64,000 bases of DNA, taken from positions 123,420 through 187,419 of the forward strand of contig NZDH01000004.1 of NCBI GenBank assembly GCA_002688775.1, given 5' to 3'. This DNA is from Candidatus Woesearchaeota archaeon. Its GTDB lineage: Archaea > Nanobdellota > Nanobdellia > Woesearchaeales > GW2011-AR4. Below the pieces are notes generated by a model. The model made no database searches, was not told the origin of the DNA, and saw nothing but the letters and a program-made list of their open reading frames with translations. How positions within the stretch are numbered: the first letter of the stretch is position 1; each line of letters starts with the position of its first letter. The translations under genes were made by a program, and so were the position numbers. Shown here one piece after another: positions 9,563-52,909 of the stretch.

Positions 9563-11299
9563 TCAAATCTTTAACTCCTTTTCCATCTGGCTTGTTAATT
9601 CTCCAAGTAATTTCTCATAATCCTTTACAAATTTCACTTCGCTTAACCTGTCTTTTGCTTTTGTAGTTATTATCTGCTGCAACCTCATGCCGCCATCAAG
9701 GGCTGCATTTGCGAGTTTTGAAAAGTGAAGAATTGATTTCATCATTTGGTATGTTTTCTTTGGTTCACAAAATGTGTCTATCTCATGGAACGCATTCTGC
9801 TGCAGTAAAACTTCCCTGATCAATCTGGCTACAAGCAAAGTGATCTGCTGTTTCTCAGGCAATGCATCTGAACCGACCAATTGGACGATTTCAAGCAATT
9901 TTTCCTCTTCCTGCAGGATTGTCATCATCTGTTCAACAAAATCATGCCAATCAGGTGCAATATTTTTTGCGAACCAAGGGTCAAGTGTATTTAAGTATAG
10001 AGAATATGAAGTAAGCCAATTTATTGAAGGGAAATGTCTTCTCTGGGCAAGTTTTGCATCCAAAGCCCAAAATACTTTTGTAACTCTCAAAGTGCTTTGC
10101 GTTACGGGCTCTGAAAAATCCCCTCCTGGTGGAGAGACAGCTCCAATAACACTGACGCTGCCTTCCTGTTTTGTTCCTAATGGTATTACACGACCTGCCC
10201 TTTCATAAAATTGTGCTAATCTTGTTGAAAGATAAGCAGGATAACCTTCTTCGCCAGGCATTTCCTCCAATCTTGAGGAAATTTCCCTCATTGCTTCTGC
10301 CCATCTTGATGTTGAGTCTGCCATCAACGCAACAGAGTAACCCATATCCCTGTAATATTCTGCTATTGTAATTCCTGTGTAAATGCTTGCTTCTCGCGCT
10401 GCAACTGGCATGTTTGAGGTATTTGCAATGAGCACTGTCCTGTTCATCAAAGGCTTGCCGCTTCTTGGATCAGTAAGTTCCGGGAATTCTGAAAGAACTT
10501 CTGTCATCTCGTTTCCACGCTCGCCACAGCCAACATAAACAATAATCTGGGCATCAGACCATTTTGCAAGCTGCTGCTGTGAAACTGTTTTTCCAGCTCC
10601 AAACGGACCAGGGATTGCTGCAACTCCTCCTTTTGCCAGCGGAAATAGTGCATCAAAAATTCTCTGGCCTGTAATCAACGGCAATTCTGGTTTTAGTTTA
10701 GAACTGACAGGCCTTGGAATCCTGACAGGCCAATTTTGCTTTAATCTCAGCTCAAACCCATTATCGAGTTTTCCTATTGCATCATTAACTGTAAATTTTC
10801 CTGACTTGATTTCTGTAATTTTGCCTTGTTGGTCTGGAGGAACCAAAATTTTATGGATTATTCCGGGATTTTCCTCAACTTCACCGATAATCTGGCCCGG
10901 AGAAACTTTTTCTCCGTTCTTAACAATAGCTTTGAAGTCCCATTTTTTTGTATGATCGAGACCAGGCGCATCAACTCCTCTTTTGATAAAATCACCCATC
11001 TGTTTTATCAGAACAGGCAAAGGTCTTTGAATGCCATCATAAATACTACTAAGCATTCCTGGACCAAGCTCAACACTTAATGGCTGGCCGGTATTCACAA
11101 CCGGTTCACCAGGTTTTATACCAGAAGTGTCTTCGTAAACCTGAATAATTGTCTTTTCGCCTTCAATCTGGATTACTTCGCCCATCAAGTTTTCATTTCC
11201 TACTCTGCAAACATCATACATTCTAGGCTTTATTCCTTTGGCTACAACAACCGGGCCTGCAATTCTGTATAAAACGCCTTTATCCATTTTATTCTTCAA
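9563..11299 (-). CDS. atpA: A/V-type ATP synthase catalytic subunit A
   Basis: Walker [10 protein letters not shown] and [10 protein letters not shown] motifs. No intein-sized insertion. The track start is TTG, and an ATG (MDKGVLY) lies at 11287. Confidence 0.97.
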
Positions 11300-11332
11300 T
11301 TTTAATTTAGTTGCAATACACCTTTTTTATTT

Positions 11333-11400
11333 GTTGGGGTTGGCAACATCACATTAGTTGTGCACTAAGGGGAGGATCGATAAGCAACGAAGTTGCTTAT
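11333..11400 (-). promoter_or_regulatory. Copy 1 of a conserved C-rich intergenic element: stop-codon hairpin plus a 43-nt block, sense to the atp operon
   Basis: The sense strand reads ATAAGCAAC-TTC-GTTGCTTAT (containing the atpF TAA), then CCTCCCCTTAGTGCACAACTAATGTGATGTTGCCAACCCCAAC. About 85% identical to 51894-51936. Confidence 0.6.
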
Positions 11401-11696
11401 TTCCATAAATCCACACCCACTGATTTTTTGATTAGCCTCTTTAAACTATCCTGCTCAACTTTTGTTGAGACTGGTATAAAAACCGGATCCACTGAATCTT
11501 CTATTTCAAGTCTTTGATGGGACTCTAAGTTATCAATTATTTTTTCATCGATTACAACAATTCCAATGTCTTTTTGAGTTTTTAAGTTCTTAATTTCAGT
11601 AAAAGGGTTATCGCCTAATTCGATCGTGTCCCTTATTCCAGCTAATTGAAAACCCACGATAAATTCACTTGTTCCGGCAGCGACAATTTTTACCAT
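11397..11696 (-). CDS. atpF: A/V-type ATP synthase subunit F
   Basis: 99 aa. MVKIVAAGTSEFIVGFQLAGI matches the subunit F N-terminus. Position in the operon fits. Confidence 0.85.
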   Translation of the reverse strand: MVKIVAAGTSEFIVGFQLAGIRDTIELGDNPFTEIKNLKTQKDIGIVVIDEKIIDNLESHQRLEIEDSVDPVFIPVSTKVEQDSLKRLIKKSVGVDLWK

Positions 11697-15883: not shown

Positions 15884-15984
15884 GCGCCGGTAGCTCAGCT
15901 TGGATAGAGCGTCTGAATTCATTGACGAACCTCCTATTCTTGGGTGAGAGCAGAAGGTCGGGAGTTCGAATCTCCCCCGGCGCG
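15884..15984 (+). tRNA. Class-I tRNA with a 26-nt intervening sequence in the anticodon arm; anticodon unresolved (only TCA or TGA possible)
   Basis: Acceptor GCGCCGG/CCGGCGC, D arm GCTC-AGCTTGGATA-GAGC, variable AGGTC, T arm GGGAG-TTCGAAT-CTCCC. TATA-like TTTATAAA lies about 30 nt upstream. Confidence 0.8.
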
Positions 15985-36940: not shown

Positions 36941-38839
36941 TTATTCCTTCTTCAAAATTTCCACAATTGCTTTCTTTATACTTTCTTTATCGATTCCTGC
37001 AAGCTTTTTCTGTATGTCGGGCTTGCCATGATCTATAAACTTGTCAGGAATCCCTATTCTTTTTACATTAGCTTTTATTCCATTATCTTCCAGCAATTCC
37101 AATACTGCAGATCCAAATCCCCCATTAATTGTTCCTTCTTCCAATGTGATAATATTTTTTATTTTATTAGCATATTTTAATATCACTTTTTCATCAAGGG
37201 GCTTGACGAATCTTGCATTAACAATTGTTGCATTGCATTTGAGTTCTTCAACAGCATACATGGCATCATACAAAATAGGGCCTACGCCTAGAATCAATAA
37301 ATCACTGCCTTGTTCCAGTATTTCTGCTTTTCCGATTTCAAGCTCTCTTAATTCCGGATCTAAGCCAACACCAATACCTCCACCTCTGGGATATCTTAAG
37401 GTTGAAGGCCCTTGCAGTAAAGTAGCTGTGTAAAGCATATGCTGCAATTCGTTTTCGTCTTTTGGAACCATAATTGTAATATTTGGGACTAATCTGAAGT
37501 AAGCAATGTCAAATGGCCCATTATGGGTTGGGCCGTCATCTCCAACTAAGCCTGCCCTGTCCAAAGCAAATATCACTGGGAGATTTTGCAAGCATACATC
37601 GTGGATTATCATGTCAAACGATCTTTGCAAGAAAGTCGAGTATATAGCACAAACTGGTTTCATTCCGTTGATTGCTAGGCCAGCTGCAAATGTGACGGCA
37701 TGCTGCTCTGCTATCCCTACGTCAATTGTCCTGTCTGGAAAGTGTTTTTCAAATTTATTTAATCCAGTACCGGCCTTCATTGCTGCTGTTATGGCAACAA
37801 TTTTTTTATCTTCTTCTGCAATTCTTATCAAAGCATTGGCAAATGCGTCTGTATATGTAATGTTTGTGGATTTAACATATTTCTGGCCATTGATGGGGTC
37901 AAAGGGAGACATGCCATGGAATTTGTCCAGATCTTTTTCTGCAAATTCATATCCTTTGCCTTTTTCTGTTTTTACATGCAATAAAACCGGACCTTTCAAA
38001 TTTTTTACATTTTCCAGTGCAGTAATCAGCTCGTCAATGTTATGGCCGTCAATCGGTCCGAAGTATTGAAAGCCAAGGCTTTCAAAGAAAATTCCTTCGC
38101 TGTATATATTTCTCAGTCTTTCCTGTGCTTTGAAAACTTTTTCAAGTTCTTGTTCCCCAATTCCTGGGATTTTTTTTAATAAATTCCTTGTTCTTTTTCT
38201 TAATTGGAAATATTTTGGATTTAGAACAATCTTATTCAGATAATTAGAGATAGCACCGACATTTGGAGAGATGCTCATTCGGTTATCGTTTAAGATAACC
38301 AGCATGTTTGTTTTAGAAGCGCCTAGATTGTTTAATCCTTCAAAAGCCAGGCCAGCTGTCAATGCTCCATCTCCAACAATTACAACAACTTTATCATCTT
38401 CATTTTTGTAATCTCGGGCTTTTGCAATTCCCAGGGCTGCTGAAATTGAAGTTGCTGCATGACCTGCTCCAAAAACATCATATTCTGATTCTGAAATATT
38501 GCAAAAACCACATACGCCTTTGTACTGCCTTAAAGTGTGAAAATTATCCCTTCTTCCTGTAATAAGTTTGTGTGGGTAACTCTGATGTCCTGTGTCTATA
38601 ATGATTTTGTCTTTTGGTGCATCAAATATATAATGAACTGCCAGTGTCAGTTCAACTGCCCCTAATGGACTGCCCAAATGACCGCCTGTTTTTGAAACTA
38701 CATTCAGGATTTTACCTCTTATTTCCTGTGCAAGAACTTTAAGCTGGTCTTTGCCCAGTTTCTTAAGGTCATTTGGGAAATTAACTTTATCAAGAAAACT
38801 AGTCTTTTCTAGATGGTCCTGTTGTTGCATTAAACACAC
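36941..38839 (-). CDS. dxs: 1-deoxy-D-xylulose-5-phosphate synthase
   Basis: TGGHLGSPLG, the TPP motif GDGALTAG...NDN and the transketolase-like C-terminal domains. 632 aa. Confidence 0.95.
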   Translation of the reverse strand: MCLMQQQDHLEKTSFLDKVNFPNDLKKLGKDQLKVLAQEIRGKILNVVSKTGGHLGSPLGAVELTLAVHYIFDAPKDKIIIDTGHQSYPHKLITGRRDNFHTLRQYKGVCGFCNISESEYDVFGAGHAATSISAALGIAKARDYKNEDDKVVVIVGDGALTAGLAFEGLNNLGASKTNMLVILNDNRMSISPNVGAISNYLNKIVLNPKYFQLRKRTRNLLKKIPGIGEQELEKVFKAQERLRNIYSEGIFFESLGFQYFGPIDGHNIDELITALENVKNLKGPVLLHVKTEKGKGYEFAEKDLDKFHGMSPFDPINGQKYVKSTNITYTDAFANALIRIAEEDKKIVAITAAMKAGTGLNKFEKHFPDRTIDVGIAEQHAVTFAAGLAINGMKPVCAIYSTFLQRSFDMIIHDVCLQNLPVIFALDRAGLVGDDGPTHNGPFDIAYFRLVPNITIMVPKDENELQHMLYTATLLQGPSTLRYPRGGGIGVGLDPELRELEIGKAEILEQGSDLLILGVGPILYDAMYAVEELKCNATIVNARFVKPLDEKVILKYANKIKNIITLEEGTINGGFGSAVLELLEDNGIKANVKRIGIPDKFIDHGKPDIQKKLAGIDKESIKKAIVEILKKE

Positions 38840-39137
38840 CCCTTAAAAATTGAAGTTTTTCAAGGTTTATAAAACTTTTCAATGTATATATAGAAAATAA
38901 AGAATAAGTGCATGTCAAAAACCAACAGACAATTTTGTCCCGTTTCATCGAAAATATAACATAATTGACAACAACATTGGACTTATGTCCATCAATCAAA
39001 GACTGATGGTATATTTTCGACATATAAAAAGAAAATGTTCGAAAATCCTACTGCTTTAGAAGATTTCCGTCACACTTCTTAGCATGTTTCGCATTTGTCT
39101 CCGCCTTTCATGAATTCCACCTCCATATGATTAAAAT

Positions 39138-39202
39138 ATTGGGGGTGAAGGACTTTTCCGGGAAAAGAGGGTTCAAACCCAGAGTTCCTTCAAATTCCCA
39201 AT
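39138..39202 (+). ncRNA. Candidate structured RNA (long closing stem with two inner hairpins) in the 550-nt gap upstream of rpl1
   Basis: ATTGGG/CCCAAT plus TGAAGGA-C/G-TTCCTTCA enclose CTTTTC-CGG-GAAAAG and GGGT-TCAA-ACCC. Locally GC-rich. Strand not established. Confidence 0.3.
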
Positions 39203-39388
39203 AATACTAGAAAGAGTATATTTGCTTTATATTCTATCTACAAGTGTTAAAGCATGGTTTGAAGGTTTAAATTAAGTGGATTAATAAACGGTGTTTATGA
39301 TTAAAAGGGAGTTTGTCATAGTTAACTTTAAAAACTCCATAATATTTCCTTATCTATTACCCGTTGTACTACCTAGGTAGGAGGGCAG

Positions 39389-40069
39389 ATGAACAAAGAA
39401 CAAATACAAGCTGCATTAGCAAAAGCAAAGGATATTTCTAGCAAAAGGAATTTCAAGCAAAGCTATGATCTAATCATAAATTTAAAGGGAATTGATAAAA
39501 AGAAGCAAGAGCATCAGATTGACGCGTTCATAACATTGCCGCATTCCAGAGGAAAAAAATTAAAGATATGTGCCATAGTCGGGCCAGAGCTTGAAGAACA
39601 AGCTAAAGGCATTTATGATTCTGTTATTTTACCTACTAATTTTCAAAAATACAAGGAAAAGAAAGATGTGAAGAAGGTTGCAAATGAATTTAATTTCTTT
39701 ATTGCGCAGGCAAATATAATGCCGAAGATTGCAACAACATTCGGTAGAGTTTTTGGGCCAAGAGGAAAGATGCCAAACCCAAAATTCGGAGGGGTTGTGC
39801 CGCCAAACGCCAATATTAAGCCATTGTATGAAAAGCTGCAAAGGACCATTAGAGTAAACACAAAGACTGCTCCGATGATCCAGTCCAGTATAGGAACTGA
39901 AGACATGGACAAAGAAGAGATAACCGATAATGCGCTTGCTATTTACGACTCACTTTTACACCTGTTGCCAAATGAAAAACACAACATAAAAGATGTTCAC
40001 ATTAAGCTAACTATGGGTAAGCCTGTCAAAGTCGGAGAAAAACTTAAGGTAGTAAAAGAGACTAAGTAA
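39389..40069 (+). CDS. rpl1: 50S ribosomal protein L1 (uL1)
   Basis: Typical uL1 sequence and length (226 aa). GGAGGG Shine-Dalgarno-like sequence upstream. Heads the L1-P0-P1 cluster. Confidence 0.95.
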   Translation: MNKEQIQAALAKAKDISSKRNFKQSYDLIINLKGIDKKKQEHQIDAFITLPHSRGKKLKICAIVGPELEEQAKGIYDSVILPTNFQKYKEKKDVKKVANEFNFFIAQANIMPKIATTFGRVFGPRGKMPNPKFGGVVPPNANIKPLYEKLQRTIRVNTKTAPMIQSSIGTEDMDKEEITDNALAIYDSLLHLLPNEKHNIKDVHIKLTMGKPVKVGEKLKVVKETK

Positions 40070-50088: not shown

Positions 50089-50199
50089 GACCGCGGGCGA
50101 GAATCGAACTCGCGCCAAGCGGATTTCAAAGCAAGATGACAACCCTAAGTTGCAACCAGCTACCACAACCGCTTATTCTACCATTAAACTACCGCAGTC
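50089..50199 (-). tRNA. tRNA-His (anticodon GTG) with encoded G-1 and a 39-nt intron after position 37
   Basis: Sense strand: G-1, ACTGCGG/CCGCGGT acceptor, anticodon stem AGCGG/CCGCT, loop TTGTGG|intron, T arm GCGAG-TTCGATT-CTCGC, discriminator C. Confidence 0.85.
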
Positions 50200-51475: not shown

Positions 51476-51874
51476 ATGGAGCAAAGACAATTCAGATGGG
51501 GAATTGCGCATATTTATGCATCATATAACAATACGATTATCCATATCACCGATATAACAGGCACAGAAACTTTGGCTGTTGGATCTGGCGGGATGGTTGT
51601 CAAGAGCGACAGAATGGAAGGAAGCCCTACAGCTGCGATGATTGCTGCAAAAAAAGCAGCTGAAACTGCAAGAGACAAGGGAATTACAGGAATTCATGTA
51701 AGAATAAAAGCACCAGGCGGCCACAATGGCCCAACAAGTCCAGGACCAGGCGCACAAGCTGCAATCAGGGCATTATCAAGAATGGGATTAAAGATTGGGA
51801 TTATTGAAGAAGTAACTCCTTTACCGCATGACGGCTGCAGAAAGAAGGGCGGAAGAAGAGGAAGACGAGTTTAG
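51476..51874 (+). CDS. rps11: 30S ribosomal protein S11 (uS11)
   Basis: [18 protein letters not shown]...[12 protein letters not shown], typical of uS11. 132 aa. Confidence 0.95.
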
Positions 51875-51936
51875 CTTCGCTAAAACTCTTTAACCTCCCC
51901 ACTAGCGCACAACTAAGGTGATGTGCCCACCCCGAC
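51870..51936 (+). promoter_or_regulatory. Copy 2 of the conserved C-rich intergenic element (stop-codon hairpin plus 43-nt block), sense to the operon
   Basis: TTTAGC-TTC-GCTAAA contains the rps11 TAG, followed by CCTCCCCACTAGCGCACAACTAAGGTGATGTGCCCACCCCGAC. Confidence 0.6.
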
Positions 51937-51982
51937 ACTTATGATTAAAGTTCACAACTAACATAATAAACTGGAGGGAAAA

Positions 51983-52780
51983 ATGGAAGTAAGAGTTTTA
52001 GAGAACAATAAAGATCAAGGCAAACTTTCTTTTATTTTGAAAGGCTCAAATCCTGTATTTGTAAATACGCTAAGAAGACTTATGATAGACCAAGTGCCAA
52101 CAATGGCTATTGAGGAAGTTGAATTTGCCAAGAACAATTCAATCCTGTATGATGAGATAATTGCACATAGACTTAGTCTTGTTCCATTAAAAACTGATTT
52201 AAAATCTTATAATCTTCCTGACAAATGCAAGTGCGAAGGCAAAGGCTGCAACAGATGCCAATTAAAACTTGTGCTTAAAGCCACAAAAGGTTCAGGTGTT
52301 GTTTATGCTTCTGAAATAAAAAGCAAGGATCCTGCTGTAAAGCCGGTTTTTGGTGATATGCCCATTGTAAAACTTCTGAAAGGACAAAATTTGGAGTTGG
52401 AAGCAACTGCAGTCTTAGGCCGAGGCAAGCAACATATGAAATGGAGTCCTTGTCATGCTTACTATAAGTATAAACCGATTGTGGAAATTACAGGGGATGT
52501 GAAAAATCCAGAAGCTATTATTGAAGTTGACCACAACAATATATTCGAAATAAAAGACAGAAAATTAGTCATAAATAAGGATAAGGTGCTAGAAAGTGAT
52601 TTATCAATGGATTTTACCGATATAGACAAAAATGTCAAAGTTTCTGCAAGCGACACGGATTTTGTTTTTTATGTTGAATCATTCAAGCAGTTAAGTTGTA
52701 AGGAAATTGTCAACAAAGCGATTAATATTTTAGATGAACAGCTTGATGAATTTGTAGAAGAGCTCAAGAAGGCAAAATAA
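51983..52780 (+). CDS. rpoD: DNA-directed RNA polymerase subunit D (Rpo3)
   Basis: FVNTLRRLMIDQVPTMAIEEV...YDEIIAHRLSLVPL and a Cys cluster CKCEGKGCNRC. Confidence 0.93.
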   Translation: MEVRVLENNKDQGKLSFILKGSNPVFVNTLRRLMIDQVPTMAIEEVEFAKNNSILYDEIIAHRLSLVPLKTDLKSYNLPDKCKCEGKGCNRCQLKLVLKATKGSGVVYASEIKSKDPAVKPVFGDMPIVKLLKGQNLELEATAVLGRGKQHMKWSPCHAYYKYKPIVEITGDVKNPEAIIEVDHNNIFEIKDRKLVINKDKVLESDLSMDFTDIDKNVKVSASDTDFVFYVESFKQLSCKEIVNKAINILDEQLDEFVEELKKAK

Positions 52781-52801: not shown

Positions 52802-52909
52802 GCGGGGGTGGCAGAGCCTGGCCAAATGCGCAAATTCATGATAAATGGAGTGGATGGTTGAGGGCCTTGTCCCTTAGTGGGTGCGAGGGTTCGAATCCCT
52901 TCCCCCGCA
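52802..52909 (+). tRNA. tRNA-Leu (anticodon GAG) with a 22-nt intron at non-canonical position 29/30
   Basis: Class II tRNA. Acceptor GCGGGGG/CCCCCGC, variable arm TCCCTTAGTGGGTGC. Removing 52834-52855 yields CAAGG-TTGAGGG-CCTTG. Confidence 0.85.

Follow-up and report, generated by a model that had tools for sequence, protein, structure and literature searches.

A candidate non-coding element family with a stop-codon hairpin and a C-rich body at operon junctions of Woesearchaeales-type archaea

Results

Two spacers of the window contain similar elements

We analyzed a 64,000-nt stretch of contig NZDH01000004.1 from a Candidatus Woesearchaeota archaeon genome (hereafter the window), in which two spacers inside operons contain similar elements, each consisting of a hairpin that encloses the stop codon of the upstream gene and a C-rich body that follows it in the sense orientation. 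Copy 1 lies on the minus strand between atpF and atpA, whose products matched the Pfam families ATP-synt_F and ATP-synt_ab (A-type ATPase catalytic subunit), and copy 2 lies on the plus strand between the genes for S11 (Ribosomal_S11) and RNA polymerase subunit D (rpoD; RNA_pol Rpb3-type). A sequence-only reading of the window had described this pair, and both copies were present at the positions it gave, with their hairpins, stop codons and CCTCCCC boxes. Their parts are listed below; model matches refer to CM R1, a covariance model for which 14 long copies of the family described in the following sections were used.

Copy 1
11307..11396, minus strand: whole insert, 90 nt, from the first base past the atpF stop to the terminal GCAACTAA (CM R1 match 11307-11406, 80.2 bits)
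11380..11400, minus strand: hairpin ATAAGCAAC-TTC-GTTGCTTAT (sequence, fold, family covariation)
11397-11399, minus strand: atpF stop codon TAA, within the 5' arm of the hairpin (sequence)
11369..11375, minus strand: C-box 1, CCTCCCC, including the CCUCC of the 16S 3' tail (family columns 94-98% conserved, never G)
11354..11363, minus strand: first GCACAACTAA motif (sequence, family columns)
11336..11344, minus strand: C-box 2, GCCAACCCC, then AAC; family consensus GTCCCRCCCC (sequence, family alignment)
11307..11314, minus strand: terminal GCAACTAA motif, closing the element at its 3' side; family consensus CACAACTAA (sequence, model match)
11285..11306, minus strand: presumed native spacer and atpA start, ATG 11285-11287 (relatives have ATGGA(T/A)AAA after spacers of up to ~30 nt)

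Copy 2
51875..51961, plus strand: whole insert, 87 nt, from the first base past the S11 stop to the terminal CACAACTAA (CM R1 match 51861-51961, 99.1 bits)
51867..51888, plus strand: hairpin TTTAGC-TTC-GCTAAA, extendable to GAGTTTAGC-TTC-GCTAAA(A)CTC (sequence, fold, relatives, covariation)
51872-51874, plus strand: S11 stop codon TAG in the hairpin, whose 5' arm is the native S11 end, R-V-stop (sequence)
51894..51900, plus strand: C-box 1, CCTCCCC (sequence, family columns)
51907..51916, plus strand: first GCACAACTAA motif (sequence)
51925..51936, plus strand: C-box 2, GCCCACCCC, plus GAC (sequence, family alignment)
51953..51961, plus strand: terminal CACAACTAA motif, closing the element at its 3' side (sequence, model match)
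51962..51985, plus strand: presumed native spacer, rpoD ribosome-binding site GGAGGG 51973-51978 and ATG 51983-51985 (relatives have 10-26-nt spacers ..ggagg(c/a)aaaATGGAAGTA)

The block that the sequence-only reading had estimated at about 85% identity was identical at 37 of 44 positions (84%), with ends at 11333 in copy 1 and 51936 in copy 2. Homology between the copies spanned the whole insert, reaching the second (G)CACAACTAA at 11307-11314 and 51953-51961, while the last ~21 nt before each start codon resembled what is presumably a native spacer with its ribosome-binding site. The copies have an 18-mer in common, GCACAACTAAKGTGATGT, which occurred twice against 0.04 expected occurrences; its near-matches in relatives, from the first pattern search, were chance matches inside genes only. 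The identity of CCUCC with the 16S 3' end, which had been pointed out before, held against the 16S rRNA of the same genome (G000), which ends in ...GGATCACCTCC. The available assembly of G000 comprises 1.04 Mb in 19 contigs and is 73% complete, and blastn-short and nhmmer searches of it with whole-element and half-element profiles detected neither a further copy nor an autonomous partner; the statistical support for the element came from ~80 copies elsewhere. With Rfam 15, the window matches at gathering score were RNase P and four tRNAs only, and nothing credible covered either copy at E values up to 10. A literature search found no relevant description of the element.

The element is an insert at junctions that are tight in relatives

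We compared the same two junctions in about 30 species of the genus. The atpF|atpA spacer measures 109 nt in the window, whereas 26 of 28 congeners have -1 to 31 nt there. At S11|rpoD the window has 108 nt and 18 of 29 congeners have at most 26 nt; this element was present at S11|rpoD in none of the 29. A BLAST search of the genus returned one clear relative, in genome G023 (E = 2e-16), located in a 107-nt spacer between the S13 and S4 genes of the same operon, a junction of 0-32 nt in most relatives; the match stops at insert position 87. The hairpin of the G023 copy is the same as that of copy 2 because S13 and S11 both end in ..AGAGTTTAR. The G023 copy has CGCAAUUGU in place of GGUGAUGU, and the C/D-box, kink-turn (K-turn) and Shine-Dalgarno readings of that stretch therefore fall. 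The GGUGAU that had been proposed as a Shine-Dalgarno–like part of the element proved variable in the family, with CGCAAU in the nearest relative.

At the S13|S4 junction of G024 (locus L033), a solo hairpin, AAAGTTTAGC-TTC-GCTAAACTTT, surrounds the S13 stop codon without a C-rich body. Its 3' arm fits the AAA codon of G024 itself, where G023 has AGA/TCT, so that between these two genomes the 3' arm of the stem follows the Arg/Lys (AGA/AAA) codon difference in the 5' arm.

The S11|rpoD junction is an insertion hotspot. In further species of the genus, inserts unrelated to the element occupy it at loci L010, L032 and L035, at L012 and L013, and at L023, L029 and L036; they comprise a family of 190-320 nt with ..ttccg..gaaactttttgcgaaaaagtttcatcaaaa in common, a ~40-nt insert between TAA..TAA and small open reading frames (ORFs) of 440-670 nt.

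The two copies belong to a dispersed family

The exact pattern CCTCCCC-N2-3-AGYGCACAACTAA (20 nt) was found at 9 loci in species-representative genomes and on 12 metagenome contigs. The 9 loci were mostly in metagenome-assembled genomes (MAGs) titled Woesearchaeota or Nanoarchaeota, with up to three copies per MAG, and the carriers were assigned to the order by MAG name rather than by phylogeny. CM R1 detected the element in 21 of 401 genomes of the order, representing 17 of 257 genera, and a single genome had as many as 8 matches; these per-genome counts are lower bounds, ten candidates having been scored per genome. Within the genus, 5 of 43 species carried it. From the genomes of the order and metagenomes together, 85 matches were aligned, corresponding to 82 distinct copies.

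Family members are ~90-100 nt long (87-90 nt for the window copies). In the consensus order, the variable hairpin is followed by a short linker that is often rich in T, CCTCCCCA(Y), TAG(Y)GCACAACTAA, ~9 variable nt, GTCCC(A/G)CCCC and (G/T/A)AC, ~16 variable nt and the terminal CACAACTAA. The body consensus, written as RNA, is CCUCCCCA..UAGYGCACAACUAA..GUCCCRCCCC-GAC..N16..CACAACUAA, in which the CACAAC motif is conserved at two places. Short forms stop at the first CACAACTAA, and a few copies have an extra hairpin between the halves. Together, these sequences indicate that the two spacers are copies of an undescribed non-coding family of Woesearchaeales-type DPANN archaea.

The stop codon lies within the hairpin, and neighboring genes are co-oriented

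In 56 of the 75 copies with a recognizable C-box, an ORF of 60 codons or more on the same strand terminated no further than 70 nt away, and the distance from stop codon to C-box clustered at 13-32 nt. The stop codon was inside the hairpin in 46 of these 56 (in the 5' arm in 37, the loop in 3 and the 3' arm in 6) and 0-29 nt upstream of it in the remaining 10. Flanking genes were predominantly in the sense orientation relative to the element, both upstream (55 sense, 9 antisense) and downstream (62 sense, 10 antisense). Random orientations and locations, as expected for a plain repeat, were therefore not what we observed: the architecture that the sequence-only reading had described from two copies (a stop-codon hairpin, stems of differing sequence and then a sense-oriented C-rich block) holds in ~80 copies, with very strong covariation and a pronounced sense bias. 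Stop-codon hairpins showed no general excess in G000 (11 of 1562 ORF ends versus 5-7 at control positions), and the association with stop codons is therefore a property of the element.

The genes upstream are genuine housekeeping genes of diverse kinds, including those for S8, S11, S13, L18e, EF-1 beta, GluRS, SufB/D, an Rnf subunit, thymidylate kinase, NrdR and UDP-glucose dehydrogenase, with translation genes noticeably frequent. The next start codon was mostly 3-26 nt past the last CACAACTAA, sometimes leaving no room for a ribosome-binding site, and in several copies the Shine-Dalgarno sequence of the next gene, or even its ATG, was inside the 3' part of the element. At one metagenomic Bud32|HAD junction (L109), an ATG within the element appears to serve as the start codon of the downstream ORF, the terminal CACAACTAA being read as AAC ACA ACT AAG.

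Hairpin pairing is retained while its sequence varies

An independent per-copy fold and stem search gave a median stem of 10 bp, with 736 Watson-Crick pairs, 21 G-U pairs, 11 A-C pairs and 13 other mismatches. The loop was TTC in 33 of 75 copies, most commonly framed as C-UUC-G, and other loops were TAC and TGC; on the opposite strand, the three loops read GAA, GTA and GCA. In the alignment fitted to the covariance model, 95.9% of stem cells were paired, compared with 49.8% in shuffles and with 27-53% after a shift of the partner column by 1-3 positions, and 168 cells had changed on both sides, compared with 41 in shuffles. Since this alignment was fitted to the model, it leans to structure; the independent fold and stem search gave the same picture of stems that vary in sequence with pairing retained. 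The predicted folds were simple local stem-loops in which the two element ends did not pair, as they would in an archaeal bulge-helix-bulge intron; no search dedicated to bulge-helix-bulge motifs was made. The stem holds up to nine coding nucleotides of unrelated genes and is still nearly perfectly paired, pointing either to continuing selection for pairing or to the correction of one arm with the other as a template.

Related hairpin centers occur in other repeats of these archaea. Outside the window, G000 has a six-copy repeat of ~100 nt, caatccGTTGCCTTCGGCAAC-aataattagtctcggcgaaatttgttttgccactaaatttcgcctcgg..ttgcaat (contigs C2, C4, C6, C8, C10 and C19), made of two hairpins, of which the first shares the C-TTC-G center of the element, and a five-copy family, ttccgatcatgc-TCAAAAATC-TTC-GATTTTTGA-cac (C1, two copies on C3 outside the window, C10 and C12), with a 9-bp hairpin and a C-TTC-G center. 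Three genomes of one genus (G221, G128 and G284; L200-L213) contain a repeat of three consecutive hairpins with GCTTCGC centers, ..TTTTGCTTCGCAAC AAAC-TTTAGCTTCGCTAAA-GTTT ..GTCTCGCTTCGCTCGAC.., in eight or more copies in G221. The GCTTCGC-type hairpin is evidently common to several repeat families of the order.

The C-rich body is unpaired and resembles the anti-Shine-Dalgarno sequence

The body is G-free and unpaired over ~70 nt, starting 13-30 nt after the stop codon. Its C-box columns are 80-98% conserved and never G, and the two boxes, CCUCCCC and CCCRCCCC, resemble the anti-Shine-Dalgarno tail of 16S rRNA. The hairpin was the only conserved structure; a second helix, GGUG/CACC around C-box 2, was rejected, with 51% of cells paired, the same as in shuffles. 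Derivation of the element from the 16S 3' end and trailer was likewise rejected, the 16S gene being followed by a T-run and not by element sequence, and the element motifs had no complementarity to 16S rRNA apart from GGGGAGG inside a 16S helix.

In the minimum-energy folds of both window copies, CCUCC pairs with G-rich coding sequence upstream of the hairpin, thereby closing it. In 48% of copies, the 25 nt preceding the hairpin contained a 4-mer complementary to CCUCCCC, compared with 25% of control windows and 22-24% of ORF ends of this genome, an enrichment of about twofold. As for downstream partners, pairing of CCUCC with the rpoD GGAGGG, which had been suggested for copy 2, is possible, and the atpA copy is without a counterpart.

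Copies are patchily distributed and appear constrained

Presence or absence of the element differs between congeners and is patchy across the order. The nearest relative of a copy was in another genome in 43 of 58 cases, often in another family, and copies were 60-80% alike. The same junctions, namely S11|rpoD, S13|S4, L18e, likely L39e (without a Pfam match and named from its own sequence), Rnf and Bud32|HAD, carry copies in different families and are empty in most congeners. Several contigs end at element copies. No recent intragenomic bursts were seen except in G252, where a copy was captured inside a 270-nt miniature inverted-repeat transposable element (MITE) and amplified with it. This MITE (L135, L171, L172, L176 and L178) has perfect 17-bp inverted ends, GGCTTCATCCATAAAAT ... 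ATTTTATGGATGAAGCC, and at least five nearly identical copies.

The element itself had no terminal inverted repeats, its ends being a hairpin or host sequence at one side and CACAACTAA at the other, without complementarity. Comparison of filled and empty junctions revealed no duplicated flank, and insertion was after or within TAA, TAG and TGA contexts of varied sequence. Y1 transposases (PF01797) showed no association with it, being present in 9 of 21 carriers versus 131 of 401 genomes overall and absent from G000; mobilization by IS200/IS605 elements or REP-associated tyrosine transposases (RAYTs) was rejected on this ground.

Four orthologous copies at the Bud32|HAD junction were 0.73 identical overall and 0.76-0.84 within the genus. 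In the flanking codons, third positions were 0.47-0.51 identical and first and second positions 0.77-0.81. One congener had a compensatory stem change, from AGC/GCT to AAC/GTT. The element thus appears to be kept by selection. Insertion into tight junctions, a patchily dispersed family in an archaeal order and purifying selection on orthologous copies all go beyond what had been read from the window.

Discussion

A possible intercistronic RNA module

The explanation that we propose, and to which we give roughly an even chance, is that the element is a constrained, horizontally spreading intercistronic RNA module. Each copy would have been inserted between a stop codon and the ribosome-binding site of the next gene, at junctions that are tight in relatives, and would be transcribed within the operon mRNA, where it most likely acts. 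A ribosome terminating at the upstream gene would have to melt the whole hairpin, which on re-forming would cap the upstream cistron, while the C boxes may pair either with the upstream G-run or with a downstream GGAGG or GGUGG ribosome-binding site. The module would in this way replace direct termination-reinitiation coupling by a structured, tunable junction, and the family may move between junctions and between lineages. Masking of the ribosome-binding site as the specific mechanism is doubtful. More tentative still is the idea of a portable device that reads translation termination, in which the opening of the stop-codon hairpin by the ribosome switches the partners of the two anti-Shine-Dalgarno mimics; if true, DPANN archaea would possess a transferable means of adjusting how strongly adjacent cistrons are expressed relative to each other. 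It is also a possibility that the 3' arm is re-templated on host coding sequence at or after arrival, a mode of insertion or palindrome correction that is undescribed for prokaryotic repeats.

Several observations weigh against the RNA module. About 17 copies are without an upstream sense gene and about 12 without a downstream one, and therefore neither neighbor is obligatory. Nor is pairing between a C-box and the ribosome-binding site downstream conserved among copies: GGAGG is missing from atpA, and a G-run occurs in the variable segment of only 27 of 79 copies. The nearly pure Watson-Crick stems are equally compatible with an RNA hairpin, with a hairpin at the DNA level and with templated copying. 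Furthermore, the sample is biased to copies that retain the conserved boxes, since the model was built from these boxes, and the comparison that points to selection covers four orthologous copies at one junction.

Alternative explanations

The element could instead be a purely selfish, non-autonomous mobile element, of the repetitive extragenic palindromic (REP), MITE or palindrome-associated transposable element (PATE) type, mobilized in trans and without host function. The sense bias and the placement directly past stop codons would then reflect where insertions are tolerated, as antisense copies would put strong GGGGAGG/GGGGUGGG ribosome-binding–like sites into operon mRNAs. Polymorphism among congeners, the patchy occurrence in 21 of 401 genomes, contigs that end at copies, the apparent remnant in G024 (the solo hairpin), the capture and amplification by the G252 MITE with its 270-nt, inverted-repeat–bounded unit, the other repeat families with the same GC-TTC-GC hairpin and the near-pure Watson-Crick stems are all in line with this view. 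However, neither terminal inverted repeats nor target duplications were found, Y1 transposases were not associated with carriers, and there were no recent bursts outside G252, copies being 60-80% alike and seldom nearest to one within the same genome. Orthologous copies were also conserved well above synonymous sites and showed compensatory stem changes. We regard a purely selfish origin as possible but rather unlikely. A signal acting at the DNA level shares part of this evidence: the hairpin could form in single-stranded DNA while the direct C-rich boxes bind a recombinase, replication or nucleoid protein, or the element could be a terminator-promoter cassette. GCGAAGC, the antisense hairpin center, is an unusually stable DNA mini-hairpin; the stems are nearly all Watson-Crick, the TTC, TAC and TGC loops read GAA, GTA and GCA on the other strand, the same hairpin center recurs in unrelated repeat families, and a TTTTA(T/A) linker precedes the first CACAAC by 20-25 nt. 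Yet a strong orientation bias relative to transcription is unexpected for a simple protein-binding site, and the Y1 transposase comparison found no co-occurring recombinase. The linker, for its part, matches the TTTAWAWA promoter boxes of this genome poorly and is missing in copy 1, on which basis an internal promoter was rejected. We consider a DNA-level signal very unlikely.

The element could also be a site of mRNA 3'-end formation or processing, in which the hairpin caps and stabilizes the upstream cistron and the unstructured C/CA-rich tract is cut by, or serves to load, an archaeal ribonuclease or a factor for termination such as aCPSF1/FttA; after cleavage, the downstream cistron would begin with a short leader. 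aCPSF1/FttA prefers CA dinucleotides, and the element offers a G-free, unpaired tail of ~70 nt beginning 13-30 nt past the stop codon, with CACAAC conserved twice. T-rich linkers follow many hairpins, the downstream start is mostly 3-26 nt past the element end with sometimes no room for a ribosome-binding site, and about a dozen copies are without a co-directional downstream gene. This explanation is nevertheless improbable, in that the element is found inside essential operons (S13-S4-S11-rpoD and atp), where full termination would be harmful, and the copy 1 hairpin has no following T-run. A Rho-type loading (rut) site would fit the composition, but Rho_RNA_bind was absent from all 23 genomes tested, with control genomes positive, and this candidate was rejected. 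A known small RNA type (a C/D-box small RNA or an L7Ae K-turn around GUGAUGU), or a chance likeness of two spacers, can practically be dismissed. The GUGAUGU of both window copies does resemble the C box RUGAUGA; the family alignment refuted this assignment, GUGAUGU not being conserved (the nearest relative has CGCAAUUGU) and a D box (CUGA) being absent, and Rfam gave no match at E values up to 10. Chance similarity was rejected in view of the two occurrences of the 18-mer against 0.04 expected and of the ~80 further copies.

Comparison with known systems

Like REP sequences and bacterial interspersed mosaic elements (BIMEs), the element is small, non-coding and dispersed, with a stem-loop of variable sequence located after stop codons or between operon genes and predicted to be transcribed with the operon. 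REP/BIME sequences are mobilized by RAYT Y1 transposases, stabilize upstream cistrons and interfere with ribosomes that terminate close by. The extragenic stem-loop palindrome expected of them was found in all copies, as the hairpin of median 10 bp. In contrast, the element is archaeal, low-copy (1-8 per genome) and one-sided in orientation, and it combines a single short hairpin that holds the stop inside its stem with a long conserved, unpaired C-rich tail. The GT(A/G)G at the 5' foot of REP palindromes is missing, the 5' flanks being unrelated coding sequences with no conserved tetranucleotide, and carriers show no co-occurrence with RAYT/Y1 genes (9 of 21 versus 131 of 401; none in G000).

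The element resembles MITEs and PATEs in being short, non-coding, polymorphic between close relatives and patchy, and it resembles the IS200/IS605-derived PATEs also in its subterminal hairpin and its lack of inverted ends and target duplication. However, the absence of terminal inverted repeats and duplications rules out a MITE, the carrier MITE of G252 having clear 17-bp terminal inverted repeats. Unlike PATEs, the element has a hairpin at one end only, of non-conserved sequence, no link to TnpA and no fixed target tetranucleotide beyond a stop-like TAR. Its copies also appear old and under selection, unlike the recent and decaying copies of MITEs and PATEs.

With coupling structures, structures that sequester by anti-Shine-Dalgarno pairing and C-rich small RNAs that cover ribosome-binding sites (for example RsaE/RoxS), the element has in common G-free, single-stranded C boxes able to pair with GGAGG or GGUGG, and it sits, as coupling structures do, exactly between the stop and the next start codon. 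Its boxes would act, if at all, in cis, unlike those of the small RNAs, and it is a dispersed, portable module rather than a structure evolved in place, with downstream pairing not conserved. Integron attC sites likewise have a hairpin conserved in structure and variable in sequence, right after or overlapping the preceding stop and in one orientation. Inspection of the 82 aligned copies, however, revealed no paired RYYYAAC/GTTRRRY core sites; the genes on either side belong to the housekeeping core and are not cassettes, the C-rich tail has no attC counterpart and no integrase context was seen. An intrinsic terminator consists of a hairpin and a U-run, and TTTT(A) follows the stem in many copies, whereas CGAT follows it in copy 1 and CTTTAA in copy 2. 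The position within essential operons speaks against full termination.

To our knowledge, post-transcriptional signals are almost unknown in DPANN archaea, which cannot be grown alone. The element provides a clearly defined, alignable and apparently order-wide non-coding feature, with a stop-enclosing hairpin, a G-free, anti-Shine-Dalgarno–like tail and evidence of selection in place. It breaks normally translationally coupled junctions of core operons for ribosomal proteins, RNA polymerase and ATP synthase, and therefore either alters the expression ratios of their genes or shows how operons tolerate insertions. A regulatory module of this kind would be new and transferable; a purely selfish repeat would be the first well-described REP-like family of the group, without the usual transposase partner. 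Either way, the covariance model can be used by annotators.

Other features of the window

Around positions 38000-40000, the cumulative GC skew of the window has its minimum, with genes leftward of it mostly on the minus strand and those rightward on the plus strand, which is the pattern expected near a replication origin. At 15884-15984, 50089-50198 and 52802-52909, Rfam tRNA matches of 100-110 nt that were not called by ARAGORN are probably intron-bearing tRNA genes.

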